Both the position numbers and the translations under genes were made by a program. From the IMG/VR virus record IMGVR_UViG_3300045988_018548: a stretch of 44,185 nucleotides of DNA; one strand, 5' to 3'. Shown in pieces: positions 1,489 through 28,710 of the stretch. The notes beneath the pieces were generated by a model that worked only from the letters and a program-made list of their open reading frames with translations, was not told where the DNA came from and made no database searches. The DNA is from a virus. Its lineage: Duplodnaviria > Heunggongvirae > Uroviricota > Caudoviricetes. The first letter of the stretch is position 1; every line of letters begins with the position of its first letter.

Positions 1489-1827
1489 TTATTTGTGTCT
1501 CCAGATGTATTGTCGTCTCTGCGGTTTCGTCGGAATATCATCGTACCCCAGCGATTTCCAGTAATTAAATAACCGATTAGCGATTGCTGCACGTTCCTTT
1601 GTTTTAAACTCACCGAGATTCACGGCCTTCCCGTTCTGGAATCCGCAGGCGCGGACTGCTTTGCGTCTGGCTTGAATCTCCGGGTGCAGCGCGTTACGGC
1701 GTCGCTTGTGTATTCTGGTGTTCGCTCTCGGTGAAAGCGGCGCAAGGCCGCTTCGTTTCAGGATGTCAGTTGCAAGGCTCATATTCCGAGAATCTCGCGG
1801 GCCATTTCTTCTGTAACTTTCGAACAA
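1489..1827 (-). CDS. hypothetical basic protein, possible AP2-like DNA-binding domain
   Basis: ORF in leftward accessory cluster; NGKAVNLGEFKTKERAAIANRLF resembles AP2 core by eye only. Confidence 0.3.
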   Translation of the reverse strand: MFESYRRNGPRDSRNMSLATDILKRSGLAPLSPRANTRIHKRRRNALHPEIQARRKAVRACGFQNGKAVNLGEFKTKERAAIANRLFNYWKSLGYDDIPTKPQRRQYIWRHK

Positions 1828-2178
1828 GGTTCGTTAATTACCTGTTCGGCGAATTCACGTAACTTTGCTTCAAGTTTCGCATAGTCTCTGTGGCCAACCC
1901 AGTCACCGTCTGCGTCTTTCTCTAAGTCAATACACCCAGTAACCCAGTCTTCTTTTAAATCGTATCTCTGTGCCATAATCACTTCTCCTGTTTACCAAGT
2001 CGCTTAGGGGAGCAGATAGCGCGTACCTCTGAATCGTTGGGTTTGTCCCCCTGAAACAGGAAGTGCGCATTTTCTGCGGCGCGTGCCGCTGACTGGCACG
2101 CCTCCATCGAGTAAAACGTTTCTGATGCCGCCAGTTGCATCTGGCCCGCGGACAATACCCATATAAATAAGATGCTGG

Positions 2179-2691
2179 TCATTTAAGTTTAGCCCCGCAA
2201 TCCAGACATTTTTTAGTAAACCCCGGCGCGAAGCCTTTACGTAACTGCGCTGTGTTGGCGTGCTTGCACTCATCAGCTTTGGTCACACCGCAATTAATAC
2301 ATACGGCGGGAGCCTTTCCGTTAACTAATCGCCAGTTATGGTGGCATTCCTGCGCGTCTTCTTTCCGGCAACCAGATTGTTCCGGCGGTACAGGCGTCGA
2401 GGTACACCGACAATTTACCGTTGTCCCAGGCACATGTTCACCCACTACATAGCGCTTACCACCATCGATGTACCCACCCTTGCGTATAAGTTTGTAGGCC
2501 TCCGCATCACCTGTTGCTTTGACCAAGGCCAGGTGCAACTCCTTAATCTGTGCCGAAGCGTCGCGTAACTGATTCTTAAGTGACAACACCTCGTGCGCCA
2601 GGTCTTCGCACTGTTGCTTGTACGGGTTGCTATTTACCTGCTGCCGTAGTTGGTCAATCAGCCACTCGAATACTTCGTTTTTGTTACTCAT
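2179..2691 (-). CDS. hypothetical Cys/His-rich protein (coiled-coil N-terminus, zinc-binding-like C-terminus)
   Basis: Track ORF 2179..2718; probable start ATG 2691 after GAGAGGAGAG; C-terminal CRC..C..HH..CINC..C pattern. Confidence 0.4.
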   Translation of the reverse strand: MSNKNEVFEWLIDQLRQQVNSNPYKQQCEDLAHEVLSLKNQLRDASAQIKELHLALVKATGDAEAYKLIRKGGYIDGGKRYVVGEHVPGTTVNCRCTSTPVPPEQSGCRKEDAQECHHNWRLVNGKAPAVCINCGVTKADECKHANTAQLRKGFAPGFTKKCLDCGAKLK

Positions 2692-2710
2692 CTTCTGTCT
2701 CTCCTCTCGC

Positions 2711-2989
2711 TTATTCAACAGCGCCTGTTATTGCGATAAGCCCGGTGTTATCGCGGCGACGATACTTACGAATCACCGTTTTAAGTTCTCCATTGCTACT
2801 CTGATGCCCGAAAGTGACCGGCAACTCTTCTCCTCCTGACATCCCGAACTCAGTGTCCGTCGGTTTGTTCCTCCACCCCTGAATAAACCCATTATTATCG
2901 CGCGTTATGTACCGGTAGTTGTTAGGGAGGGGCAACTCCAGCCCCTCAAAATCAACGGTCACGGTGTAGCTGTTAAAATTCATAGTCAA
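2711..2989 (-). CDS. hypothetical protein
   Basis: 92-aa ORF in same-strand accessory cluster, start overlaps stop of upstream small ORF. Confidence 0.35.
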   Translation of the reverse strand: MTMNFNSYTVTVDFEGLELPLPNNYRYITRDNNGFIQGWRNKPTDTEFGMSGGEELPVTFGHQSSNGELKTVIRKYRRRDNTGLIAITGAVE

Positions 2990-3145
2990 TTACCCCAAAC
3001 TCATTAATGATTTGAGCCTTGTAGAAGTTGCCGTGTTTAGCCAGGTGGTACGCCTGCGCCATAGTCATCTCGCGGTAAGTTGCAGCGCTGTTTTCGAACT
3101 CCATAATCATCAAAGTAACCATATTCTGCCTCTCCTCTCGTTTGT

Positions 3146-3183
3146 GTAAATGAATGGTATCCTATTCTCCCCCAGTGTGCAAG
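3146..3183 (-). promoter_or_regulatory. class II conserved promoter motif (degenerate copy) for leftward small genes
   Basis: Minus-strand reading TTGCACACTGGGGGAGAATAGGATACCATTCATTTACA aligns with motifs at 4199..4232, 26307..26342, 35924..35957; followed by GAGGAGAGG and ATG at 3123. Confidence 0.4.
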
Positions 3184-3338
3184 TAAATTTTATTGGTGTT
3201 TGTATTGTTGCATCTCCTGCAATAGTCGCTTCGATTGTTGCGTTTGGTGAAATAGAACAAAAATGAGAAAAATGATACGCTGCTGTGTAGCAGCGTAAGT
3301 CACTCAGTAAAATCTCAAACTATTGTTACAATATAGCA

Positions 3339-3533
3339 TCACAATTCTGGCGGCTGCGGTAACGGCATCCAGTACACCACGTCGCAGCTACGAATATTTG
3401 AATTGTTCTCCGTGAAACTATCCCAGCAGTAATTTCCATCAAGCCATTTAACTTCTACATCCACGCCATCTGAAACCAGCACATCTTCAAAGTCATCAGG
3501 CATCCGCTCACTACACTTAATCCACTTACCCAT
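3339..3533 (-). CDS. DUF551-like protein
   Basis: 64 aa; C-terminal VVYWMPLPQPPEL matches the W-M-P-L-P-x-P-P hallmark of DUF551; RBS GAGGTGA. Confidence 0.5.
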   Translation of the reverse strand: MGKWIKCSERMPDDFEDVLVSDGVDVEVKWLDGNYCWDSFTENNSNIRSCDVVYWMPLPQPPEL

Positions 3534-3908: not shown

Positions 3909-4168
3909 CCTCCCTCAGAGTCGTCGGCACGAGCATCATGATTCGATGCCGTTGTGAATGAGGCTTTCAGTCCGCCATCGAATACCCCTTTGAATTTAAA
4001 ATTGTTGCCAATTAATTCCAGATTATCGCGTAAGGCGAACCCGGGTTTCTTTCTTACCAGGCCCCATACGTCGACTATATTATCCTCGTCATACTCGTTC
4101 TCGTCCTGCAACACTATTACGTACTGCCCACCGCGTTTCGTTTTCACCAACTGACCCTTCTTAAACAT
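3899..4168 (-). CDS. hypothetical protein
   Basis: 89-aa ORF; GAGGAG RBS upstream of ATG 4168; first gene downstream of class II promoter at 4199..4232. Confidence 0.4.
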   Translation of the reverse strand: MFKKGQLVKTKRGGQYVIVLQDENEYDEDNIVDVWGLVRKKPGFALRDNLELIGNNFKFKGVFDGGLKASFTTASNHDARADDSEGGCR

Positions 4169-4198
4169 AACCCCAACTCCTCTGTCTCGTTCCGATAA

Positions 4199-4232
4199 GT
4201 GAATAGTGTCCTATTATATTGGGGTGTGCAAG
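4199..4232 (-). promoter_or_regulatory. class II conserved promoter motif (TTGCAC-N17-CACTAT on minus strand)
   Basis: Minus-strand reading TTGCACACCCCAATATAATAGGACACTATTCAC; near-identical to motifs at 26307 and 35924. Confidence 0.5.
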
Positions 4233-4396
4233 AGAATAGTTACGATGCCGTTGTGATTCTTTCGTTTCTTAAAAGAGTACGCAACGCAGTGGGTGGGCGT
4301 TAGCCCACCCCAGCGGAGTGAAGTACTCTCTACCTTGCTTACGGCAACTATAGAAACTTTTAATTATCAGTGGCTTGGGTATTTAGGCGGGATTAA

Positions 4397-4540
4397 CAAT
4401 AGACTTTGGCCCTTCCGAAAGCGCCAGCGGAACTACACTCAAGTGCCTAATGGCACGCGTTGCGTTCCCTGCCGCTCCGCGGTCGCTTGCGATATCTCAC
4501 AAGCTCAGTGAAGCTTAGCATATTTTTAAGTAAAAGTCAA
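4397..4540 (+). repeat. ~144-bp intergenic element, copy A (paralog of 35715..35857)
   Basis: About 75% identity to copy B by eye, same orientation, with hairpins at matching positions (gtgcc-taat-ggcac; aagct-cagtg-aagctt followed by T-run). Confidence 0.8.
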
Positions 4541-4586
4541 TACCAGTAGCATCTTTTGTATCTTAGTAACTTTGTGTTCGGTTTTG

Positions 4587-4615
4587 GTTGCTTTTACAAA
4601 GTTACCGCCTTATAC
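4587..4615 (+). promoter_or_regulatory. sigma70-like promoter TTGCTT-N17-TATACT for the rightward early operon
   Basis: Hexamers read from sequence with 17-bp spacing, about 30 bp upstream of RBS AGGAG and ATG 4647. Confidence 0.5.
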
Positions 4616-4646
4616 TTCGATACATGTTACACAGGAGAGCGTGAAA

Positions 4647-4816
4647 TGACTATCAATGAAGTTGCAGAATTAATCGGCGTCACCCGCCAGACAATTAATA
4701 ACTGGATTAAGAGTGGAAAGTTTCCTGATTGCAGCGTTAAAGTAATGGGTCGCAGAATGCCGGGTACATTTGACCGTAATAAAGTTGAATCGTGGGTTAA
4801 AGAGAACGTTAAATAA
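4647..4816 (+). CDS. AlpA/excisionase-family HTH DNA-binding protein
   Basis: 56 aa; MTINEVAELIGVTRQTINNWIKSGKFP matches the AlpA-type HTH pattern; RBS AGGAG. Confidence 0.6.
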
Positions 4817-4874
4817 AAGAAAGCCCCGACGCGGTGAACGCCGAGGCCAAATTACTTGCTGAAGGAAATACAAC

Positions 4875-7163
4875 ATGTCCGATGTAATTTTATCCTACTC
4901 GTGGTCTCGTCGCAACGCGCGTGCAGAGAAAAAGGATATAAACGTCAGAACCACCCACACGGCAACACTGGACGACCTGAAAGAGCTAATCAAGCCGCTT
5001 GATGCTGTTCGTGGCGGGATTAACCCGAAGACCGCACCTGGCTATATCACTGCCGCGTGCGACTCGGCACACAGCACCGTAAAAGACCCGGAAACCGGTG
5101 ACTTTAAGCAAGCGCGTAAAGGCTTCTTCTATCGCTGCGATGCGTCTGTAAGCAAATCGTCGCTGGCGTATCTGGACTTCGACAGTGCAACACCGGAAGA
5201 GTATCAGGAAGCGGTGCGCCTGGTTAAGCGCAGCCGCCTGGTTATGTGCCTTTACACCACGGCGTCACATACCGATGAGTCCCCACGCTTTCGGGTCGTC
5301 ATGCCGCTTGCCCGCCCGGTTGAAGGCGGTGACATCATCCGCGTTCGTCATGGATTGCTAGAGCACTTCTTCAAAGGCATGGGGGCGGACCGCAGCGGGT
5401 TTACTCTGTCCCAGCCGATGTACCTGCCACCAGTTGGCTCGCAGGTTATCTGGTCGCGCCGCAACGACCTGATTGACCCGGACGAATTACTGGAAGGCAT
5501 CCCCGCCGTTGACGTTAGCAGCGCATCGGATTACCAGATACCGGAAGAACTGCGCACCGCGTTTACAGATGCGTTTGAAGCACTGGCATTCGAGTACGGC
5601 GGCATCATGACGCCGCGGGGCCTGAAGATGCCCGCTACGCCGGAACACGCAGAAAACTACAGCGACCCGACGCCGCGCCCGGACGACTTCCTGCTGTGTT
5701 TCCCGCGTGAAGGGTACGAAGCGCCGAACGTAACCATGATTCATGACACTGACATCACGGCGACCGAGGGCATGTCACCGAAGGAGGTGTGGAAGTATGC
5801 GTGCGACGCTACCGGGCTGCCGTTCAGTGAAGTTGCAGAGGCTATCGGATGGGGCGCGCGGGAGTCCGTTTCATGCAGCCTCGACGACCTGGAAGATGAT
5901 GACGAGGACTCAGGGGAGGACGAGGACTCAGGGGAGGACGAGCTACCGGAACCGTTAAAGGCTGATTTCGTCGTTGAGGGGTACATGCCGTCTGATTGCA
6001 TATGGGATATCGTCGGGGAGTCCGGTACGTATAAATCCTTCTATACGCTGGGGATGATGTACCTCAGCGCCGCCGGATACCGGTTTGCGGGGGCGGACAC
6101 CCAGCGTTGCCACCATTTCTATATCGACGGGGAGGGTGGCGCGGCTACTCGCACCCGTATCGACGCGCTCGCGGCTAAGTATGGCGGGGAAGGTAAAGAT
6201 TATGTACATGTTATCGATATGGGCGAGGTCGGAAAACTGAAAAGCCTGATTAAGTTAATGCGTGAAACTGCTGGCGACGAGCCAATCGGCATGGTTGCGT
6301 TCGATACTCTCAACCAGACACTGGCTCTGACGATTGATAAGTTCGACGAGAACAGTTCATCGACGGCAATCGGTATGGGTAAGGTTATCGCCATCCTGAA
6401 AGAAGTACGTGACGCGACTAAAGCTGCGGTGGGCGTCGTCCACCATACACCGAAGGGCGGAAAGAAAGCCCGTGGCAGCGGGGCGCTGTATGCGGGTGTC
6501 GACGTGGAACTGACAATCGAACGTGCAACCGACCGCCAGATAAACGTATACCACTCTAAGTTTAAGCACGGCCCTCAACAGAAAACGGTTGGCATGGTAC
6601 TTGAGTCAGTACAGTTCCGTGAAGCACCGCCACCGAAAGAGTATCGCGCTGTCGAGTTCCTCGGCAGCACCGAGGGGTACGGCACAATCGTAAACCTCGA
6701 CCTGCCCGAGCCACACAAGGCGCTTGTATTGATGCCGTGGGGCTTCGAACCGTTCAAGACTGACGAGGAGAAAGAACGGGAAGAAGGGCTGCCGAAAGAA
6801 GGTAAAGAAAACGTACGTAAAACCGTAGAGAACGCTGTCAACAGCTCGGAGGCCACGATACTGGCAGCGTTTGAACTGGCGGAAGGAACCTACAACGGCA
6901 ACGAAGGCATCACAGTCGCAGCAGCTAATAAGCTCGCACAGTCAGACCCCAACGCAAAGGCGTTTAACTCCAAAGAAGCCATAGAACGCGGGAAGATTAA
7001 GAAAATGGTTGAGGCTGGGTATCTTGTTCCGGGGACTGACGAAAACAATCAGATAATCCCTGGCCGTTACAGGCTGAACACCCGGATAACTGATAACAAG
7101 ATTCCGAAGACAATATACGAACCGAATGAGATGCTGATAGTGACAGAGGAGGATTTGGAATGA
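4875..7163 (+). CDS. bifunctional primase-helicase (AEP-type primase N-terminus, RecA-like P-loop helicase C-terminus)
   Basis: 762 aa; N-terminal LDFD and TTASH motifs; Walker A GESGTYKS; Walker B-like MVAFDTL; acidic linker between domains. Confidence 0.8.
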   Translation: MSDVILSYSWSRRNARAEKKDINVRTTHTATLDDLKELIKPLDAVRGGINPKTAPGYITAACDSAHSTVKDPETGDFKQARKGFFYRCDASVSKSSLAYLDFDSATPEEYQEAVRLVKRSRLVMCLYTTASHTDESPRFRVVMPLARPVEGGDIIRVRHGLLEHFFKGMGADRSGFTLSQPMYLPPVGSQVIWSRRNDLIDPDELLEGIPAVDVSSASDYQIPEELRTAFTDAFEALAFEYGGIMTPRGLKMPATPEHAENYSDPTPRPDDFLLCFPREGYEAPNVTMIHDTDITATEGMSPKEVWKYACDATGLPFSEVAEAIGWGARESVSCSLDDLEDDDEDSGEDEDSGEDELPEPLKADFVVEGYMPSDCIWDIVGESGTYKSFYTLGMMYLSAAGYRFAGADTQRCHHFYIDGEGGAATRTRIDALAAKYGGEGKDYVHVIDMGEVGKLKSLIKLMRETAGDEPIGMVAFDTLNQTLALTIDKFDENSSSTAIGMGKVIAILKEVRDATKAAVGVVHHTPKGGKKARGSGALYAGVDVELTIERATDRQINVYHSKFKHGPQQKTVGMVLESVQFREAPPPKEYRAVEFLGSTEGYGTIVNLDLPEPHKALVLMPWGFEPFKTDEEKEREEGLPKEGKENVRKTVENAVNSSEATILAAFELAEGTYNGNEGITVAAANKLAQSDPNAKAFNSKEAIERGKIKKMVEAGYLVPGTDENNQIIPGRYRLNTRITDNKIPKTIYEPNEMLIVTEEDLE
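5901..5942. repeat. 18-bp tandem duplication (gacgaggactcaggggag x2.3) in primase-helicase acidic linker
   Basis: Perfect contiguous copies encoding DEDSGE DEDSGE. Confidence 0.85.
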
Positions 7164-7828: not shown

Positions 7829-8350
7829 ATGTTAGAGAAATTCTTAGTATTACTGGAACGTTTCGTAGTTGCACATGAACTGATTGCTGCGAATAGTGCG
7901 AAACAACCGACCAATAAATCTATAGGTGAATTGACTGTTGACGTAGCGGTAACGGGGGTAGAGACAGTTAAAAAAGAACTGGCTAAAGCACTTGAAGAAG
8001 TCGAGAAGGCGAAAGAAATCCCGGTCGAAGGTGAAGACCTCGTTGACACTAAACCGGCGGAAGAAGAGAAGCCGAAACGTAAGCCGCGTAAAGCTAAAGT
8101 AGAGGAACCAACGCCAGAGCCGGAAGAAGAGAAGGAAGAAGTAGATTACCAGTCTCTGCGCGACCAGATTCAGGCTATCGACGATGCGATTAACGAAGGT
8201 CCGAGCGATGCCGCGTGTGATGATTCCGATGAACTGCTGGAAGAGTTCACCGGTAAGAAGATGAAGATTGCCGCGATTAAAGACGAAGACCTCGCCGAGT
8301 ACCTGGAGCGCCTGACGGCAATCAAGAACAAGTATTTCGAAGAAGAATAA
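7829..8350 (+). CDS. acidic early protein, function unknown
   Basis: 173 aa; strong RBS GAGAGGAGAG; C-terminal half very rich in Glu/Asp with a central Lys/Pro-rich patch. Confidence 0.5.
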   Translation: MLEKFLVLLERFVVAHELIAANSAKQPTNKSIGELTVDVAVTGVETVKKELAKALEEVEKAKEIPVEGEDLVDTKPAEEEKPKRKPRKAKVEEPTPEPEEEKEEVDYQSLRDQIQAIDDAINEGPSDAACDDSDELLEEFTGKKMKIAAIKDEDLAEYLERLTAIKNKYFEEE

Positions 8351-8357
8351 CTATCAC

Positions 8358-8377
8358 GCGGCCTTCGGGCCGCTTTA
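8358..8377 (+). terminator. stem-loop gcggcc-ttcg-ggccgc followed by TTTAACT
   Basis: Read from sequence just after stop of 7829..8350. Confidence 0.4.
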
Positions 8378-8393
8378 ACTGAGGGTCGGAATT

Positions 8394-8609
8394 ATGAGTA
8401 ACGTATACAAAGTAATAAACGAACAAATAGTTGTAGAAATAAGTGACTCAGATGTGGGTTGCCAGCAATTCTTTGTTTTGAATGGTGCGTGGCGCGGGAC
8501 TCTTGACTATGCCACCGGCGAATACTGGGCAGACATGTACCCAACCGATAAAACAGCGGTACATACAATTCGTCCCGCCGTTAAAGGTGAATTCGCACCG
8601 TACTACTGA
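8394..8609 (+). CDS. hypothetical protein
   Basis: 71-aa ORF with RBS GAGGGT. Confidence 0.35.
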   Translation: MSNVYKVINEQIVVEISDSDVGCQQFFVLNGAWRGTLDYATGEYWADMYPTDKTAVHTIRPAVKGEFAPYY

Positions 8610-8620
8610 GGGTCAGAATT

Positions 8621-8824
8621 ATGGCTATTTTAGTTAAGAAAAGTGGTCTTATGATTTCTGGTAGCGTTGTCTCTGAAAATGATTTGGTTTACGTATTTCA
8701 GGCGGTAGACAACAAACACCCTACGACGGTAAAGAAGGTCAGCAAAGTTGAGAAGGTTTTCGACGGCGATTTTTCTATTGACGATGTTTTCACGTGGATT
8801 AACTCTGCGAGGGTAAAGAAATGA
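8621..8824 (+). CDS. hypothetical protein
   Basis: 67-aa ORF with near-identical RBS context to the preceding gene. Confidence 0.35.
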   Translation: MAILVKKSGLMISGSVVSENDLVYVFQAVDNKHPTTVKKVSKVEKVFDGDFSIDDVFTWINSARVKK

Positions 8825-11145: not shown

Positions 11146-11424
11146 ATGGCAGCGGAACTTAAGAGATACAGACGCATCACCTACTGCAAATTTTGTAAGG
11201 CAGAAGGTAAAAAAGTTAGAGCAATTTGGATGACTAAATATCCTCCTGCTTACAAGTTACGAGACTGGTATAAACACTATGCATGCGACGAGCATAAACA
11301 TTTAATAGAGGACACAGACCCAAACCGGACTTGGGCAGAAATCCTAGAGCGCAGTAAAAACCAGAAACCAGAACGCGACGACCATCTCACAGAAGCAGAC
11401 TATCAGACGTGGTACAGACTATGA
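11146..11424 (+). CDS. small zinc-ribbon-like protein
   Basis: 92 aa; CKFC ... CDEH Cys/His pairs. Confidence 0.4.
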   Translation: MAAELKRYRRITYCKFCKAEGKKVRAIWMTKYPPAYKLRDWYKHYACDEHKHLIEDTDPNRTWAEILERSKNQKPERDDHLTEADYQTWYRL

Positions 11425-13604
11425 ACACATTGCTTTACTTAGACTTTGAAACATTCTCCGAAGCCGATTTAAAGAAAGTCGGCTCCTACGCTTACGCCGA
11501 ACACCCGACTACAGAAGTGCTCATCTGTACCTATGCTTTTGACGACGAGCCTGTACAGGTATGGGATTGCACCGACGGCAGCGACATGCCGGGCGATTTG
11601 CATCGCGCGTTACGCCGTCTGGTTAAGCCGAACAGCCGCATTAAGATGGTGTGGCACAACGGCTCAATGTTCGACCGCCTAATCATGAAGCACTGCTGGG
11701 ACTTTGATATTCCGGTAAGCAACACCGTTGATACGATGATTTGGGCGTTTCGTCACGCGCTACCTGGTTCACTTGATGCGTTGTGTGAAGTGCTGGGCGT
11801 GTCCGCAGACAACGCGAAAGATAAACGCGGCAAGGCGCTGATTCAGCGTTTTTCTAAACCGACGCCGAAGAACTACAAAATCCGCCGATACACCGCCGAA
11901 ACGCACCCGGATGAGTGGGCGCTGTTCATCAAGTATGCCGTGAGTGACATCACGGCGATGCGTGAAGTGTTCCATAAGCTGCCGCGGTGGGGTAACTCCG
12001 AGTTCGAAGACCGTGTACTGGAGCTGGACCAGTTAATTAATGACCGCGGGTTTAAGGTAGACGTTGCACTGTCGGAAGCCGCGATTGAAGCCGTGGAGAA
12101 GCACAAGGCACAGTTACAGGAAGAAGCCCAGCGCAAATATGGCGGCTCTCTTACTGGGAAGGACTTTCTGCCTATTCTGCGTGAACTTGCGCCAGCGCAC
12201 CGCATCAACAACGCACAGAAGTCGACGCTTAACGACCTGCTGGCGGATGATGACTTACCGGACGACGCACGCACAATTATCGAAATGCGCCTCGGGGCTG
12301 CGTCCACCGCATCAACGAAATATAACCCGCTGCTGTTGGGTCGCTCGTCGGACGACCGCCGCCGCGGTTGCATTCAGTACGGCGGGGCCAAGCGTACGCT
12401 ACGGTTTGCTGGCAAAGGCTTCCAGCCACAGAACCTGGCGCGCGGGTACTATCACGATGATGAGCTGGATAAAGGCATTTCTGCGTTACTTAAAGGCCGT
12501 GCGCACCGTCGTTTCGATGTAGCCAAACTAACGGCATCGACGGTTCGTAGCTGCATCATACCGGAAGCTGGGCATAAGTTTGTCGTAGCTGATTACTCTA
12601 ACGTTGAAGGCCGTGGTTTGGCGTGGCTGGCTGGCGAAGAAACCGCGCTCGATACATTCCGTGCCGGGCTGGATATTTACTGCGTAACCGCAGGTAAGAT
12701 GTTCGGCATGGAGCCGGATTACATTAAGAAAGAACGCAAAGACTTGCGCCAGATAGGTAAGGCCTGCGAACTTGGACTTGGCTATGCGGGCGGGGTAGGT
12801 GCTTTCGTTCAGTTTGCTAAGAACCTCGGCCTCGACCTGGTTGATATGGCAAAAACAATGGATGGGACTTTCCCCGACCACATCTGGGCCGCTACCGCAC
12901 GTGGATATGAGTGGGCGCGTATTCAGGAAGCCAAGCGACCACCACGTCCAGGTGAAAAGGATGACCGACCATCATATATTCTTGATAAGAAAGTGTGGCG
13001 TACCTGTGACGCTATCAAGCGCATGTGGCGCGAGTCTCACCCGGAAACAGTAGCTTTCTGGCGAGATATTGAAGATGCAGCTATGGCGGCTATCCGCAAC
13101 CCAGGTAAAGAGTTCACCGCAGGGCCGCGGGGTGTTAAGTTTTCGCGTAACGTAGAAACAGACACCAACGGCAACAAAGTCGCGGGCTGGTGGTTGCGCA
13201 TGACGTTGCCGTCGGGCCGCGTTATGTCTTACCCGGGCGTTGGTTTAAGTGTATCAAAAGAGACAGACGAAGACGGGAAGGTGTCTACTAACGTGCGCAT
13301 AAAGTACCAGGGTGAAAACCAGTTAACCCGTCAGTGGGGCTTCCAGTACACATATTCCGGTAAACTCGTGGAAAACTGCACTCAGGCGCTGTGCCGTGAT
13401 TTGCTGGCTAACGCCCTGCTGAACGTAGAGGCCAACGGCTACCCGATTGTACTTCATGTTCACGATGAAATTATCTGCGAGACACCAGATTTACCAGAAT
13501 ACAATGTCGCAGAGCTGGAACGGTTGATGTGCGAATTACCGGAGTGGGCAGAGGGTTTCCCTCTTGTAGCGGAAGGTGCGGAGTTAAAACGTTATGCTAA
13601 GTAA
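11409..13604 (+). CDS. DNA polymerase, family A (3'-5' exonuclease + polymerase domains)
   Basis: 731 aa; Exo I LDFETFS; polymerase motif C VHDEIICE; probable start ATG 11421. Confidence 0.9.
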   Translation: MVQTMNTLLYLDFETFSEADLKKVGSYAYAEHPTTEVLICTYAFDDEPVQVWDCTDGSDMPGDLHRALRRLVKPNSRIKMVWHNGSMFDRLIMKHCWDFDIPVSNTVDTMIWAFRHALPGSLDALCEVLGVSADNAKDKRGKALIQRFSKPTPKNYKIRRYTAETHPDEWALFIKYAVSDITAMREVFHKLPRWGNSEFEDRVLELDQLINDRGFKVDVALSEAAIEAVEKHKAQLQEEAQRKYGGSLTGKDFLPILRELAPAHRINNAQKSTLNDLLADDDLPDDARTIIEMRLGAASTASTKYNPLLLGRSSDDRRRGCIQYGGAKRTLRFAGKGFQPQNLARGYYHDDELDKGISALLKGRAHRRFDVAKLTASTVRSCIIPEAGHKFVVADYSNVEGRGLAWLAGEETALDTFRAGLDIYCVTAGKMFGMEPDYIKKERKDLRQIGKACELGLGYAGGVGAFVQFAKNLGLDLVDMAKTMDGTFPDHIWAATARGYEWARIQEAKRPPRPGEKDDRPSYILDKKVWRTCDAIKRMWRESHPETVAFWRDIEDAAMAAIRNPGKEFTAGPRGVKFSRNVETDTNGNKVAGWWLRMTLPSGRVMSYPGVGLSVSKETDEDGKVSTNVRIKYQGENQLTRQWGFQYTYSGKLVENCTQALCRDLLANALLNVEANGYPIVLHVHDEIICETPDLPEYNVAELERLMCELPEWAEGFPLVAEGAELKRYAK

Positions 13605-25781: not shown

Positions 25782-26198
25782 CTACTTTTCCTGCAATTGG
25801 TGAAGCTGTTCATTGTGGAAAACAACAACGTGTTCAGCGAGTCGTTTATATTGTGAGAAAAGAGTATTCAGGTTCTCTTTATTAAATTCATCGTCGAGAC
25901 TCCAACCGTTAACCAGTTCAAGCGCTAACTGGCGGTTAAGGTCCGTTGCGGCGTCTTCCATCTTGATGTTGTATTCCGAGAAATCTTTCAGTTCCTCGCA
26001 TTTATCGCGAAGCGGTTTCAATTTACCTAATGCCGCGCGGTACGCAAGTGTAAACGCCCTCATAGCTTTAACAGCAACGTCTGCCTCCGGTGAAACAACG
26101 TTCAGCCACTCCCCTGAATCGGTGCCGTCTTTCAGTGGTATCGGCATACGGGCGCCTTTTTCTGCCTCAGCTTCGTAATAAAAATCAGAAAGTTTCAT
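25782..26198 (-). CDS. tail assembly chaperone (G-like)
   Basis: 138-aa acidic ORF directly upstream of tape measure, canonical position. Confidence 0.5.
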   Translation of the reverse strand: MKLSDFYYEAEAEKGARMPIPLKDGTDSGEWLNVVSPEADVAVKAMRAFTLAYRAALGKLKPLRDKCEELKDFSEYNIKMEDAATDLNRQLALELVNGWSLDDEFNKENLNTLFSQYKRLAEHVVVFHNEQLHQLQEK

Positions 26199-26306
26199 TC
26201 TTTAATCCTTTGGTTAAGAGGTTACAGGTTAATGGTAAATGCGCCAGACGGGAACCACCCGCTTTTCGTGTGCGACACTAGGCGCAAAATTATTCTATCA
26301 CATTAC

Positions 26307-26342
26307 TTGCGCACCCCAACATAATAGGATACTATTCACTTA
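26307..26342 (+). promoter_or_regulatory. class II conserved promoter motif (TTGCGC-N17-TACTAT)
   Basis: TTGCGCACCCCAACATAATAGGATACTATTCACTTA, about 35 bp upstream of ATG 26377. Confidence 0.55.
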
Positions 26343-26376
26343 CACCAACAATGTTAACTCAAACAGGAGCTACACC

Positions 26377-26568
26377 ATGACAGGTATTACTATGTTCTTC
26401 TTAATCATTATCGTTTTAGTTTATTTTATCCCGTTTTTAGTGGCCCATATGCGCGGACATAAAGCGAAACTGGCGATATTCATGGCTAATCTGTTTCTCG
26501 GCTGGGTTCTGCTGCCGTGGGTATTTATTTTAATCTGGGCTTGCAACTCGAATGTCAAAGAGAAGTGA
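26377..26568 (+). CDS. small membrane protein (two predicted TM helices)
   Basis: 63 aa; MFFLIIIVLVYFIPFLVA and LFLGWVLLPWVFILIWA; RBS AGGAG. Confidence 0.45.
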   Translation: MTGITMFFLIIIVLVYFIPFLVAHMRGHKAKLAIFMANLFLGWVLLPWVFILIWACNSNVKEK

Positions 26569-26606
26569 GCTAGTATAGGACAAATCCTAAACACGAGGAA
26601 GTAAGC

Positions 26607-27737
26607 ATGGCCCGGAAGAAAATAACCGACGAACAGTTACAGGAAGAATTGAACGCCGGAACAAAGATTATCGACATATCCCGTAAATACGGCATCTCAG
26701 ACCGAGTTATTCGTATCCGTAAAGCGAAGCTGGCGAAGAAAGGCGTAGGTCACGGTCGTGACGTTAGCCATCTTGTCCCGGACGGCTACAAAATTAAAGG
26801 AACGTCGTCACTGGTGGACGAGTTCGGCAACACTAAGTTGCAATGGGTTAAGACAGACACCGACGCCGAACGTCAGGTCGAGTTAATGAAAGCCGTGATC
26901 GAAGGAATGAAGTCGGAGATTACGCCAGTTGCGCCGGTTAAAGCGACTCGAGCCAAACGCGATGATAAACTACTCAATCTGTACACGGTATCTGATTTCC
27001 ATCTTGGTATGCTGGCCTGGGCTGACGAGAGCGGCGACGACTGGGATATGAAGATTGCGGAAGACCTGTTCTCCCGATGGTTCGATGCGGCGTTTCAGAA
27101 AGCACCAGATGCAGGAACTGGGGTTATTAACCTGCTGGGTGACTTCGCGCACTTCGATAGTCTGGATGCGGTTACGCCAGCGAGTGGTCATGTTCTTGAT
27201 GCGGACACTCGTTATCAGAAACTGGTCCGATACATGATTCGTATGGTACGCCGTGTTGTTGACATGGCGCTGGTTAAGCATAAATCTGTTCGCTTGCTTA
27301 TCGTGCAAGGGAACCACGACGAAAGCGGAATGATTTGGTTAGCTGAGATGTTTAGTACGCTGTACGACAATGAGCCGCGTGTGTTCGTCGATACGTCGCC
27401 GGATGTTTACAAGATGGTCCAACACGGCAAAACTACGCTGTTCTTTCACCACGGGCATAAGGCGCGATTCGACGCTATCGAACCGGTAATGATTGCCAAG
27501 TTCCGTAAAGCGTTCGGCGAGAGTGTTTACAGCTACGCCCACGTAGGCCATCTGCACCACCAGAAGATTGTAGAAAGCCGTAACATGATTGTTGAGCAAC
27601 ACCGCACCTTAGCGGCTAAAGACGCCTACGCCTCGCGCGGCGGATGGATGTCGGGCCGTAGTGCAAATGTAATTACTTATAGCGCCGAATATGGCGAGGT
27701 CGCACGTTTAACTATTTCACCGGAGATGCTGGGATGA
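26607..27737 (+). CDS. HTH domain fused to calcineurin-like metallophosphoesterase
   Basis: 376 aa; N-terminal HTH-like IIDISRKYGISDRVIRIRK; phosphoesterase motifs DFH, GDFAH, GNHDE, HHGH, GHLHH in canonical order. Confidence 0.7.
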   Translation: MARKKITDEQLQEELNAGTKIIDISRKYGISDRVIRIRKAKLAKKGVGHGRDVSHLVPDGYKIKGTSSLVDEFGNTKLQWVKTDTDAERQVELMKAVIEGMKSEITPVAPVKATRAKRDDKLLNLYTVSDFHLGMLAWADESGDDWDMKIAEDLFSRWFDAAFQKAPDAGTGVINLLGDFAHFDSLDAVTPASGHVLDADTRYQKLVRYMIRMVRRVVDMALVKHKSVRLLIVQGNHDESGMIWLAEMFSTLYDNEPRVFVDTSPDVYKMVQHGKTTLFFHHGHKARFDAIEPVMIAKFRKAFGESVYSYAHVGHLHHQKIVESRNMIVEQHRTLAAKDAYASRGGWMSGRSANVITYSAEYGEVARLTISPEMLG

Positions 27738-27934
27738 AAGATATGTATGAATGTACCGATGTGAGTCCGTACGCGGAGAAAAATGGATTCGAAGTAGGTG
27801 CGGTATATGAAGGGGTCACCCTAGAGAACGGCGACGTAAGAATGTATTCGCCTAAATATCGCAGCTTCTTTGAAATAGGCAACATTAACGAGTCAGGCAT
27901 AGCCCGATTTAAGAGAGTTAACAGTGACAAATAA
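27734..27934 (+). CDS. hypothetical protein
   Basis: 66-aa ORF, ATGA overlap with upstream gene. Confidence 0.35.
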   Translation: MKDMYECTDVSPYAEKNGFEVGAVYEGVTLENGDVRMYSPKYRSFFEIGNINESGIARFKRVNSDK

Positions 27935-28154
27935 ATACAACCGCACAATGACAAACATTCACGGCAGCACTATGACGGTTGACGTTTACGACGTGCTACG
28001 CGCCTTCGACATACGGGACCCAGCGTTACAGCACGCATTGAAGAAGCTATTGTGTATGGGCCTTCGCGGACACAAAGACACAGGAACAGACTTAGCGGAA
28101 GCAATTGAAAGCCTGGAGAAGTTACGGGAGTACAGGGGTAACATTGATGAGTAA
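27924..28154 (+). CDS. hypothetical protein
   Basis: 76-aa ORF overlapping upstream gene. Confidence 0.35.
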   Translation: MTNKYNRTMTNIHGSTMTVDVYDVLRAFDIRDPALQHALKKLLCMGLRGHKDTGTDLAEAIESLEKLREYRGNIDE

Positions 28155-28157
28155 GAA

Positions 28158-28177
28158 AAGGCCCCGAAAGGGGTCTT
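28158..28177 (+). terminator. stem-loop aaggcccc-gaaa-ggggtctt
   Basis: GC-rich hairpin after stop at 28154; weak T-tract. Confidence 0.45.
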
Positions 28178-28190
28178 ATCGCAACAGGAG

Positions 28191-28685
28191 ATGATTATGG
28201 ACTGGAATGAATTTTTCATATACGACTTAATTTCAGGAAGGATATTTAACAGAGTAACCCGGTCCGGGAGGGCTAAGGCTGGAGAGGAAGCGGGTACTGT
28301 CCAGCGAGACGGATATAGAAGGATATTTTTCCGAGGTAAATGGCACGCGGCGCACCGTATAGCTTGGGACTTAAACAATCCTAACGATAAGCTAACCTCG
28401 TCAGATCAAATAGGCCATCTAGACCATGACCGAATAAACAATAGACCGCTTAACTTAGCTAAAAAGTCCAATGCGGAAAACCATAAAAATATGTCAAAAC
28501 AGCGTAATAATAAATCAGGAGTAACCGGGGTTTACTGGAACGCGAAAGAAAGGTTGTGGTACGCACAGATATTCAACAATAACGTAAAAACACACATCGG
28601 GTGCTTTAAAACGCTACTAGATGCAGTTGCCGCGAGGAGAGTTGCTGAAAGAGATTTAGGGTTCCACGAGAACCACGGTAAATAG
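28191..28685 (+). CDS. HNH homing-type endonuclease with C-terminal AP2 DNA-binding domain
   Basis: 164 aa; HNH core AHRIAWDL ... IGHLDHDRINNRPLNLA ... AENHKN; AP2-like SGVTGVYWNAKERLWYAQI; likely start at second ATG (28197). Confidence 0.8.
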   Translation: MIMDWNEFFIYDLISGRIFNRVTRSGRAKAGEEAGTVQRDGYRRIFFRGKWHAAHRIAWDLNNPNDKLTSSDQIGHLDHDRINNRPLNLAKKSNAENHKNMSKQRNNKSGVTGVYWNAKERLWYAQIFNNNVKTHIGCFKTLLDAVAARRVAERDLGFHENHGK

Positions 28686-28686
28686 T

Positions 28687-28710
28687 AAGGCCCCTTTCGG
28701 GGCCTTTTCC
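28687..28710. terminator. bidirectional terminator aaggcccc-tttc-ggggcctt + TT
   Basis: Perfect 8-bp GC stem between convergent genes. Confidence 0.65.

Follow-up and report, generated by a model that had tools for sequence, protein, structure and literature searches.

An HTH-fused metallophosphoesterase common among small virulent siphophages is a predicted stand-alone DNA nuclease

Mre11, SbcD and phage T4 gp47 are nucleases in which a metallophosphoesterase (MPE) core is followed by a capping domain, and which have a coiled-coil ATPase partner (Rad50, SbcC or gp46). In Mre11, motif II reads GDLFH. The nuclease MPE of P. putida is a Mn2+-dependent single-stranded DNA endonuclease whose gene lies in a repair cluster that also encodes an exonuclease, a helicase and a ligase. 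In phages, the T5 record gives A1 a part in host-DNA degradation, jointly with the DNA-binding protein A2, and places the 5'-dNMP phosphatase gene dmp three genes from A1 in the same pre-early block. Cluster A mycobacteriophages encode MPEs with all five motifs (Bxb1 gp47 and A10ZJ24 gp48; PHROG 221), and A10ZJ24 gp48 is a reported phosphodiesterase that damages host genomic DNA and that the phage requires to replicate in M. tuberculosis (PMC12287305). In this report we focus on an MPE with its own HTH, found in a window of 44,185 nucleotides from a Caudoviricetes virus (IMG/VR record IMGVR_UViG_3300045988_018548), which we propose, with moderate confidence, to be a stand-alone, metal-dependent DNA nuclease tethered by that HTH and serving phage DNA metabolism. 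The gene, an ORF with an ATG start and 376 codons plus stop, and the parts of its product are as follows.

26595..26599, + strand: Shine-Dalgarno GAGGA, with the ATG 7 nt downstream (direct sequence reading)
26607..27737, + strand: HTH-metallophosphoesterase coding sequence, PHROG 704 / T1 gp16 family (ORF list; PHROG profile; identical protein in GenBank)
26607..26741, + strand: tri-helical HTH, residues 1-45, third helix very basic (DRVIRIRKAKLAKK), net charge about +7
26742..26780, + strand: flexible linker, residues 46-58 (pLDDT 61-66, below 50 at residues 48-51)
26781..26918, + strand: family-specific long beta-hairpin (61-70, 76-85), then a helix (87-104)
26961..27734, + strand: MPE catalytic domain, residues 119-376 (pLDDT mostly >90)
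26994..27002, + strand: motif I, D130-F-H132 (DFH, residues 130-132); D130 and H132 kept in 143/143; aligned with gp47 GDWHLG
27138..27152, + strand: motif II, G178-D179-F-A-H182 (GDxxH, residues 178-182); G and D in 143/143, H182 in 140/143
27309..27323, + strand: motif III, G-N236-H237-D-E (GNHDE, residues 235-239); N and H in 143/143
27447..27458, + strand: motif IV, H-H282-G-H284 (HHGH, residues 281-284); H282 in 143/143
27546..27560, + strand: motif V, G314-H315-L-H317-H (GHLHH, residues 314-318); G314 and H317 invariant; aligned with gp47 GHFH
27606..27650, + strand: post-motif-V segment, T334-L-A-A-K-D339-A-Y-A-S-R-G-G-W through M348 (hhalign alignments)

The initial annotation had described a calcineurin-like metallophosphoesterase with five canonical motifs in order behind an HTH-like segment of about 45 aa, and each element of that description is borne out. 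The five ordered motifs that provide dinuclear metal ligands (DxH, GD, GNH[DE], H and GHxH) are all present, so that the motif residues fall at metal-ligand positions. In an alignment of 143 representatives, one per different 50%-identity cluster, nine motif columns are 100% invariant (D130, H132, G178, D179, N236, H237, H282, G314 and H317) and three further motif columns are nearly so (H182, 140/143; H284, 128/143, the rest having D; H315, 136/142), a conservation that is beyond chance. Purifying selection on the gene is strong, with 58 synonymous and 5 non-synonymous codon differences from phage KMB36, and 101 and 9, respectively, from phage fEg-Eco06. Taken together, the invariant dinuclear-site ligands and this selection point to an active enzyme. 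Assignment to the superfamily is drawn from the motifs and the predicted model, which has the MPE fold, and not from Pfam: the protein scores below the gathering thresholds of Metallophos_2 (22.2 vs 27 bits) and Metallophos (18.7 vs 21.5), and just 11/40 and 7/40 family members match these two models at E<=0.01. These sub-threshold scores reflect a divergent family and do not conflict with the motif and fold evidence.

The N-terminal module is predicted to fold as three bundled helices, one of them a recognition helix, and resembles known DNA-binding domains of the resolvase / LuxR-GerE / sigma-70 region 4 class. Its composition (13 K/R vs 6 D/E in residues 1-46) is suggestive of DNA binding. 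According to column counts, the family has a linker motif, G-[YFW]-[SA]-P-[ED]-H-D-[ML], that is degenerate in the window protein (GVGHGRDV). The beta-hairpin, in which G74, W80 and K82 are near-invariant, and the helix after it have no recognisable structural relative.

Where the initial annotation does not hold is in treating this fusion as non-standard for a phage. The window protein matches PHROG 704 ("DNA repair exonuclease") at E 1.7e-165, residues 4-375 covering profile positions 2-389 of 390, with further matches to PHROGs 20703, 20762, 284 and 21891, and the family HMM gives T1 gp16 (ST16, YP_003929) a score of 425 bits. This PHROG 704 / T1 gp16 family is already catalogued and common, comprising >2000 phage records and 4648 50%-identity clusters. 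Its layout of HTH, hairpin plus helix and MPE shows no material difference from that of the window protein, and fusion to an HTH, sometimes duplicated, is the family norm. The window itself comes from an E. coli Kagunavirus, and GenBank already contains identical proteins, that of phage fBC-Eco01 being 100% identical. The gene is found in essentially all Guernseyvirinae and, more widely, in essentially all members of the T1-like Drexlerviridae and Webervirus as well, which places it among the most widespread conserved genes in small virulent siphophages. Existing database labels range over 'DNA repair exonuclease', 'DNA polymerase II small subunit', 'oxidoreductase', 'phosphatase' and 'hypothetical'. 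The first of these, used as the family name, derives from the predicted fold, and in the literature on Kagunavirus, Jerseyvirus, Drexlerviridae, T1 and anti-defence MPEs, we found no published experimental work on any family member or behind its labels. The protein has no match in NCBIfam, and a BFVD fold search returned uncharacterised phage homologues only.

Among described enzymes, the catalytic core is most like the Mre11/SbcD/gp47-DP1 branch of metallophosphoesterases, with the Mre11, SbcD and gp47 nucleases as its closest structural relatives. When a sequence profile was run against all PDB sequences at E<=10, the sole MPE entries retrieved were the P. putida 'Nuclease MPE' and the T. 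maritima Mre11/SbcD, both nucleases and each a non-significant match. The P. putida enzyme (6nvo), the best MPE match by profile, has a similar GNHD context and a motif II (LGDFLH) of the same GDxxH form. Searching the PDB with the protein alone yielded nothing but spurious matches (a designed helical barrel and the STIV B204 ATPase). When SbcD, T4 gp47, Bxb1 gp47 and T5 A1 were compared with it as single sequences in hhalign, the outcome was uninformative (4-17% probability, about 4% for gp47 and SbcD), HMM-versus-sequence scores were all <=6.4 bits, and a usable ranking came only from small family profiles built on IMG/VR loci. In local profile-profile comparison, the T4 gp47 family aligned over 182 columns including motifs I-III and V (68% probability, E 4.8e-5, from thin profiles), followed by the Bxb1 gp47 family (54%) and the T5 A1 family (17%). 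Motif III aligned with the GNHD of gp47, SbcD and Bxb1 gp47. The gp47 and HTH-MPE profiles also have in common an extra motif, TLxAxD....RGxW, which lies in the post-motif-V segment (shared with the T4 gp47 family, TLTAGDENDPRGFW, by hhalign) and in which T334 and D339 are each kept in at least 126/143 representatives. At the level of sequence, the links to gp47 and SbcD are nevertheless weak.

There are also clear differences from these nucleases. The protein lacks a capping domain and ends 59 aa past motif V, a region modelled as just four strands and two helices, all short, whereas the N-terminal HTH and hairpin are features of its own. No Rad50/SbcC-like gene is encoded in the window or recurs near the gene in 118 surveyed loci, and PHROG 100, which is matched by both T4 gp47 and E. 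coli SbcD, is not matched by the window protein. Furthermore, T4-like Campylobacter phages of the Eucampyvirinae (Fletchervirus) carry both families, with an HTH-less PHROG 704 member in F348 and a gp47 homologue in CP81; the two families are therefore not interchangeable. DP1, the small subunit of archaeal PolD (a 3'-5' proofreading exonuclease; 5ihe), was the top match at 12% identity. This suggested a proofreading-subunit role, which we rejected as generally applicable: T1-type phages carry the gene yet lack any annotated DNA polymerase, which makes a dedicated role of this kind unlikely. The DP1-type arrangement of an OB-fold and a PDE domain acting with a DP2 subunit is not seen in the protein, and no DP2 is encoded.

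Comparison with other phage MPEs gives a similar picture of partial likeness. The Bxb1 gp47 family aligns with HTH-MPE across motifs II-V, but the cluster A proteins belong to a different PHROG, are only 255 aa long, lack an HTH and come from another host and type of phage. T5 A1, with A2 and Dmp, is a functional analogy only. Its C-terminal half contains DIH, NHD, HGH and GHTH in that order, and the profile match is confined to 40 columns round motif III, with size and N-terminal half both different. The DNA-binding protein is separate in T5, whereas here a putative DNA-binding module is part of one chain with the MPE domain, and the proximity of dmp to A1 is echoed in sister phages of the window, where a phosphatase and a dNMP kinase adjoin the MPE gene. 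We considered A1/A2 as a split version of the fusion and rejected it, since the homology is weak, A2 is unlike the HTH and neither protein matches Pfam. PTXU04 appears not to be a relative either, its 2198-aa polyvalent protein having little likeness to known proteins; separately, the PTXU04 paper never mentions Kagunavirus or phosphoesterase. The 'phosphoesterase' mentions in the literature on PUA-Cal-HAD and Lamassu concern host defence proteins.

In the mechanism that we favour, HTH-MPE would be a two-metal phosphodiesterase acting on DNA, with a dinuclear centre formed by D130, H132, D179, N236, H282, H315 and H317 and assisted by H237 and H182, the metal probably being Mn2+ or Mg2+. Access to DNA would not need a Rad50/SbcC ATPase clamp: the basic tri-helical HTH, on its flexible linker, may keep the enzyme on duplex DNA, with the family-specific hairpin and helix adjoining the catalytic domain. 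Phosphodiester cleavage would take place at ends, nicks, and single-stranded or structured regions. The likeliest role, we infer, is either the breakdown of host (or competitor) DNA to feed dNMP salvage, or the trimming of ends and intermediates in support of concatemer processing and of replication that depends on recombination. Evidence on this side consists of the ligands and the selection on them, the nuclease matches in the PDB, the gp47 profile link, the form of motif II, the HTH as family norm, the gene neighbourhoods and the precedent of A10ZJ24 gp48. On the other side are the weak gp47/SbcD links, the lack of a capping domain and a Rad50/SbcC partner, the co-occurrence in Campylobacter phages and the variability of the neighbourhoods. 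In addition, Kagunaviruses are reported to be highly sensitive to restriction-modification systems (PMC11990801), which counts against a host-DNA-degrading nuclease in that the sparing of the phage's own DNA has to be explained.

The surroundings of the gene bear both on this nuclease and on its nearest rival. Related loci were searched with a 9-sequence alignment. We surveyed 118 loci from many lineages and found no universal partner gene. In 17 of them a HAD_PNKP phosphatase and a dNMP kinase lie no more than four genes away from the MPE gene (directly downstream in the listed layouts). This pair (the phosphatase being phrog_415, Pfam E 1.1e-19, and the kinase of the P-loop type) stands directly 3' of the MPE gene in many Guernseyvirinae and recurs in a lineage whose protein is only ~53% identical, where an ATP-dependent DNA ligase comes next. 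T1, in which the MPE gene follows helicase and Dam methylase genes, also encodes a phrog_415 phosphatase, and in Campylobacter phage F348 the MPE gene comes after genes for a Holliday-junction resolvase and a DNA ligase. The surveyed loci also encode RusA, Endo VII, NinG, ATP-dependent DNA ligase, a phrog_107 exonuclease, a dATP/dGTP diphosphohydrolase and HNH proteins, and the P. putida repair cluster would resemble these neighbourhoods. The PNKP-type phosphatase, the kinase and the ligase would also suit an end-healing phosphoesterase, in which the MPE clears DNA or RNA breaks of 3'-phosphate, 2',3'-cyclic-phosphate or other blocking groups at the 3' end and these neighbours act as its partners in repairing damage by host nucleases. 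An MPE-type phosphatase domain does such end healing in bacterial Pnkp. We regard this as unlikely, though the best placed of the rivals.

In the window, the gene sits in a local island with the following features.

26297..26325, + strand: weak sigma-70-like promoter candidate for the imm-MPE unit, ATCACA-17-CATAAT (consensus scan; site count no higher than in shuffles)
26377..26568, + strand: Imm superinfection-immunity membrane protein, upstream of the MPE gene in one + strand unit (Pfam Imm_superinfect, E 3.1e-13)
27734..28154, + strand: two small downstream ORFs, of 66 aa and 76 aa, at a variable cargo position (ORF list)
28160..28175, + strand: GC-rich hairpin GGCCCC-GAAA-GGGGTC past the 76-aa ORF (terminator-like by eye; not flagged by the terminator scan)
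28191..28685, + strand: HNH homing-type endonuclease gene, between two hairpin copies (Pfam HNH_3, E 1.1e-4, below cut-off; KMB36 annotation)
28687..28706, no strand assigned: hairpin AAGGCCCC-TTTC-GGGGCCTT, between the island end and the stop codon (28711) of the convergent tail-tube gene

The imm gene likely starts at 26377 rather than 26239, as judged from the RBS and ATG and from the 63-aa product annotated in both KMB36 and fEg-Eco06. The promoter candidate is not evidence of function. The 66-aa and 76-aa ORFs, the latter matching just the C-terminal part of longer PHROGs, stand where sister phages have the HAD_PNKP phosphatase and dNMP kinase. T1, AugustePiccard, a Vibrio phage and MAG contigs all have an HNH gene of the same cluster directly 3' of the MPE gene. 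The hairpin at 28160-28175 is an inverted copy of that at 28687-28706, which is present as one copy at the equivalent place in fEg-Eco06 and is probably a bidirectional terminator.

Slightly less probable than end healing is a small-molecule phosphodiesterase or pyrophosphatase, acting on cyclic or linear immune-signal nucleotides, dNTP, NAD-derived or sugar-nucleotide substrates, with the HTH making it a 'trigger enzyme' transcriptional regulator or serving as a mere anchor, and with immune evasion or nucleotide-pool reprogramming as the outcome. The phage signal-degrading enzymes Acb1 and Apyc1 are small stand-alone proteins with other folds, and in PADLOC no defence or anti-defence family was matched at E<=1. 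The gene is present essentially throughout whole phage subfamilies and families and not patchily, as accessory genes are; no operator-like repeats were found round the island promoter region; motif III has GNHD where the YfcE/MJ0936 group has GNCD; and, as described above, the MPE entries among the PDB matches are nucleases without exception. Much less probable is a protein that mainly binds DNA or acts as a scaffold and not as a catalyst, such as an accessory factor in replication or recombination. This reading has precedents in Bxb1 gp47, which has the MPE fold and reportedly serves as an integrase directionality factor, and in eukaryotic polymerase B subunits, which have an inactive MPE fold with degenerate sites. 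In HTH-MPE, by contrast, the metal ligands are invariant or nearly so, and the phage is virulent, with no integrase among the annotated KMB36 genes or the genes scanned in the window. Least probable of all is a Ser/Thr/Tyr protein phosphatase brought to DNA-bound targets, a reading helped by a superfamily shared with lambda phosphatase and by a DNA-binding domain that could localise it, but the PPP-family signatures of the lambda phosphatase type (GDxHG, GDxVDRG and GNHE) are absent from the window protein.

Returning to the self-tethered nuclease, a broader and more tentative proposal, doubtful as it stands, is that the family constitutes an uncharacterised class of Rad50-independent, self-tethering Mre11-like nucleases, and is the host-chromosome-degrading and nucleotide-salvage nuclease of many small virulent siphophages, the T1-like and Jersey-like ones included. 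To our knowledge, the host-DNA-degradation function of T1 is genetically defined and has never been assigned to a gene, and HTH-MPE could correspond to it. The variable HTH might let each lineage choose its own target, such as host or competitor DNA in preference to the phage's own. We propose the annotation 'HTH domain-containing metallophosphoesterase (T1 gp16 family), predicted nuclease', rather than a polymerase subunit. The groups that carry the gene are among the most often isolated coliphages and Salmonella and Klebsiella phages, many of them used in therapy or biocontrol. Were small-molecule hydrolysis to prove true, the family would represent a new type of phage counter-defence enzyme; if instead it is a host-DNA-destroying nuclease, this would bear on host-gene transduction, and hence on the safety of therapy, on the supply for DNA synthesis and on which defence systems are triggered.

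Few conserved genes of small virulent siphophages are as widespread as the HTH-metallophosphoesterase (MPE) gene. The window comes from an Escherichia coli Kagunavirus (Guernseyvirinae) that shares 88-98% DNA identity in the MPE region with phages KMB36, fFiEco03, fBC-Eco01 and others. In it, the gene sits in a + strand island (imm, MPE, two small ORFs, hairpin, HNH, second hairpin) between two - strand late genes, to which the island is convergent and divergent:

25782..26198, - strand, tail assembly chaperone
26377..26568, + strand, Imm-type superinfection-immunity gene (Pfam E 3.1e-13)
26607..27737, + strand, HTH-MPE CDS, ATG start, 376 aa; ribosome-binding site GAGGA 7 nt 5' of the ATG, same strand
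27734..27934 and 27924..28154, + strand, two small ORFs (66 aa and 76 aa)
28160-28175, GC-rich hairpin between the small ORFs and HNH
28191..28685, + strand, HNH endonuclease gene
28687-28706, second GC-rich hairpin, an inverted copy of the first, abutting the tail-tube stop codon
28711..29883, - strand, tail tube

The ORF list reproduces exactly the coordinates of the initial annotation, and its five MPE motifs are all present in the protein between residues 130 and 318 (DFH 130-132, GDFAH 178-182, GNHDE 235-239, HHGH 281-284 and GHLHH 314-318). Key motif positions proved invariant or nearly so across 143 aligned representatives of 50%-identity clusters: D130, H132, G178, D179, N236, H237, H282, G314 and H317 are invariant, and H182, H284 and H315 nearly so. 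A profile search gave an end-to-end match to PHROG 704 ('DNA repair exonuclease'; E 1.7e-165). Relatives were found by tblastn in 2054 phage records, including Guernseyvirinae, T1-like Drexlerviridae, Klebsiella Webervirus-type phages, Vibrio, Ruegeria, Flavobacterium and Campylobacter phages and a jumbo Salicola phage, and HMMER, run exhaustively over 1.84 billion representatives, yielded 4648 family clusters at 50% identity. The phage T1 member, gp16/ST16 (377 aa), scores 425 bits against the family HMM. Codon differences from the related phages KMB36 (58 synonymous, 5 non-synonymous) and fEg-Eco06 (101 and 9) complete the evidence, with the PHROG match, the breadth of homologues and the invariant ligands, that this ORF is more than chance. 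Essentially all Guernseyvirinae carry the gene: at identities of 60% and above, a search with the tail-tube protein recovered 495 records and one with the MPE protein 462, beyond which lie further Salmonella Jersey-type phages at ~55% identity. Because of this breadth, the earlier view that such a fusion is not a standard phage component finds no support. In some records (e.g., Shashou; PHROGs 20703 and 20762), the gene is split into two ORFs.

An AlphaFold2 model built with a 40-sequence alignment (mean pLDDT 90.1, pTM 0.75) defines the architecture of the protein. At the N terminus are three helices (8-16, 21-28 and 32-44; residues 1-45), joined by a linker modelled with low confidence (residues 46-58) to a long beta-hairpin of two strands and a helix (residues 59-104), where G74, W80 and K82 are near-invariant; the MPE domain (residues 119-376) follows, with pLDDT mostly >90. 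The N-terminal segment of about 45 aa was originally described as HTH-like. In the window protein it is too divergent to match Pfam; since the N termini of homologues match Sigma70_r4_2 (1.5e-9), GerE (2.4e-8), HTH_8 and HTH_23, the HTH is real and the norm for the family. It is strongly basic (13 K/R vs 6 D/E in 46 residues). Some members have two HTHs, and those of Campylobacter, Ruegeria and Salicola phages have none. We found no recognisable relative of the hairpin-helix segment. In most members the disordered HTH-hairpin linker contains a conserved linear motif, G-[YFW]-[SA]-P-[ED]-H-D-[ML]. This motif could bind a partner or act in autoinhibition; the window protein has a degenerate version, GVGHGRDV (26742-26780, residues 46-58).

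Several lines of evidence, each modest alone, agree in pointing towards the nuclease branch of MPEs. No close solved structure exists for the protein, and the only MPEs matched in a PDB-wide sequence-profile search (E up to 10) were P. putida 'Nuclease MPE' and, from T. maritima, Mre11/SbcD; the matches are individually non-significant, and every one is a nuclease. Motif II has the GDxxH form of the P. putida nuclease MPE; in Mre11 it reads GDLFH. PPP-phosphatase signatures are absent. When small profiles built from IMG/VR loci were compared locally with hhalign, the T4 gp47 family aligned with 68% probability (E 4.8e-5, 182 columns) across motifs I-III and V, plus a further shared segment after motif V (TLAAKDAYASRGGW in the MPE protein, TLTAGDENDPRGFW in T4 gp47), the mycobacteriophage Bxb1 gp47 family with 54% probability, and the T5 A1 family with 17%. 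The Bxb1 RefSeq record puts the label 'recombination directionality factor' on the small gene Bxb1p46; the published factor is gp47, the adjoining metallophosphoesterase, so this may be a mis-annotation (the two genes occupy 8021-8788 and 7876-8016 in the Bxb1 locus, L042).

The protein is not an Mre11/SbcD orthologue. It lacks a capping domain, since the modelled chain stops 59 residues past motif V, and it belongs to PHROG 704, unlike gp47 and SbcD (PHROG 100). We found no Rad50/SbcC/gp46-like ATPase gene in the window, whose large ORFs encode a primase-helicase, an exonuclease (phrog_69), a Gp2.5-like annealing protein, PolA, a helicase and structural proteins, and no recurrent one near the MPE gene across 118 loci. 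Furthermore, Eucampyvirinae (Fletchervirus) Campylobacter phages have both families, an HTH-less PHROG 704 member in F348 and a gp47 homologue in CP81, which are therefore not redundant. Set beside characterised enzymes, the MPE protein is probably an uncharacterised architectural variant of Mre11/SbcD-like nucleases, with HTH and hairpin standing in for Rad50 and the capping domain.

Across other Guernseyvirinae, the MPE gene stays constant and its flanking genes vary. Upstream lies imm or a gene for a 108-aa protein (phrog_14165) with an apparent signal peptide, read from sequence; both products could be superinfection-exclusion functions. Downstream lies a HAD_PNKP-type phosphatase with a dNMP kinase, the 76-aa ORF or HNH. 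This 3' slot is a variable cargo position (27734-28154 in the window; 4128-5170 in comparison locus L005), filled in many sister phages by the phosphatase (annotated 'polynucleotide kinase') and dNMP kinase. The same pair follows the MPE gene in an unrelated, ~53% identical lineage, with Endo VII and phrog_107 exonuclease genes before and an ATP-dependent DNA ligase gene after. Immediate neighbours elsewhere include RusA, NinG and dATP/dGTP diphosphohydrolase; in T1, helicase and Dam methylase genes precede the MPE gene and HNH and the lysis cassette follow; in Campylobacter phage F348, it lies 3' of DNA ligase and Holliday-junction resolvase. No partner gene is universal among these neighbourhoods, but the genes nearby consistently belong to DNA and nucleotide metabolism.

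The imm gene of the island, preceded by the ribosome-binding site ACAGGAG (26364-26370), almost certainly starts at ATG 26377 (63 aa), as annotated in related phages; the mechanical ORF (26239-26568) has 109 aa. Matches of the 76-aa ORF to longer PHROGs are confined to ~70 C-terminal positions (phrog_2452, 150-220 of 235; phrog_17613 'ATPase', 171-237 of 246); the ORF may represent either a leftover fragment or a C-terminal domain that stands alone. Very distant phages have an HNH endonuclease gene of a single blastp cluster 3' of the MPE gene (window 28191-28685; six comparison loci, L002, L003, L006, L019, L020 and L043); it directly adjoins the MPE gene in T1, in AugustePiccard, in a Vibrio phage and in two MAG contigs, and lies one gene away in a third contig. 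This pattern fits free-standing homing endonucleases targeting, or homing beside, a highly conserved gene. In the window, the inverted hairpin copies bracket HNH; fEg-Eco06 carries just one, where its island ends, and the pair looks like the footprint of HNH insertion beside a terminator. As the island (26377-28710) lies opposite to the - strand late operon, between its tail-tube and tail-assembly-chaperone genes, late transcription must either stop at hairpin 28687-28706 and restart, a promoter-like - strand site being present at 26357-26329, or run antisense through the MPE gene. Elsewhere, the window's PolA-type DNA polymerase (11409-13604, 731 aa) lacks a ~294-aa insertion of its KMB36 orthologue (1031 aa; 4538-7633 in L001, the KMB36 locus), and the KMB36 minor head protein has an annotated intein; core genes of Kagunavirus evidently gain and lose mobile insertions.

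The invariant dinuclear site argues that the protein is an enzyme, and the fold, profile matches and gp47-like extra motif place it with nucleases; on balance, it is probably a stand-alone metal-dependent DNA nuclease. The basic HTH on its flexible linker would be a simple substitute for the Rad50 clamp, keeping the protein on DNA. Because a dNMP kinase and a PNKP-type phosphatase recur beside the gene, one output might be nucleotides for salvage; the resolvase, ligase and exonuclease neighbours would fit equally well with a role in trimming intermediates of recombination or replication. Parallels for the former exist in T4, whose record annotates gp46/47 as needed for recombination and host-DNA degradation, and in T5, whose record assigns A1 to host-DNA degradation jointly with the DNA-binding protein A2, and where the 5'-dNMP phosphatase gene dmp lies three genes from A1 in the same pre-early block. 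T5 A1 (host-DNA-degradation and second-step-transfer protein; 1706-3376 in the T5 locus, L124) has no Pfam match and aligns with the PHROG 704 family around motif III only; by eye, its C-terminal half shows DIH, NHD, HGH and GHTH in MPE order. Recent work on a phage MPE family separate from PHROG 704 reports that it damages host DNA and supports replication (PMC12287305).

The same phosphatase, kinase and ligase neighbours could instead be partners of an end-healing phosphoesterase, but this is unlikely, since PHROG assignment makes the kinase a dNMP kinase and motifs of the lambda-phosphatase type are missing. A phosphodiesterase or pyrophosphatase acting on small molecules, possibly in immune evasion, would suit the moron-like appearance of the island, and small-molecule MPEs are only 2-4 Z units behind nucleases. 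However, the DNA-binding-type domain, presence in essentially all members of whole phage groups, absence of PADLOC matches and nuclease-only PDB sequence matches make it quite unlikely. A non-catalytic factor, contradicted by the invariant metal ligands, is very improbable, and a protein phosphatase scarcely credible.

Neither sequence nor family is new as an object: both are public, labelled MPE, exonuclease or wHTH protein, and phage fBC-Eco01 carries a 100% identical protein annotated 'DNA polymerase II small subunit'. Other records say DNA repair protein, metallophosphoesterase, phosphoesterase, oxidoreductase or hypothetical. Full-text literature searches found no experimental study of a PHROG 704/T1 gp16 family member. 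A phage MPE nuclease would not surprise a specialist. What makes this one of interest is that it is ubiquitous in therapeutic phage groups, is annotated inconsistently and may be what degrades host DNA in T1-like phages.
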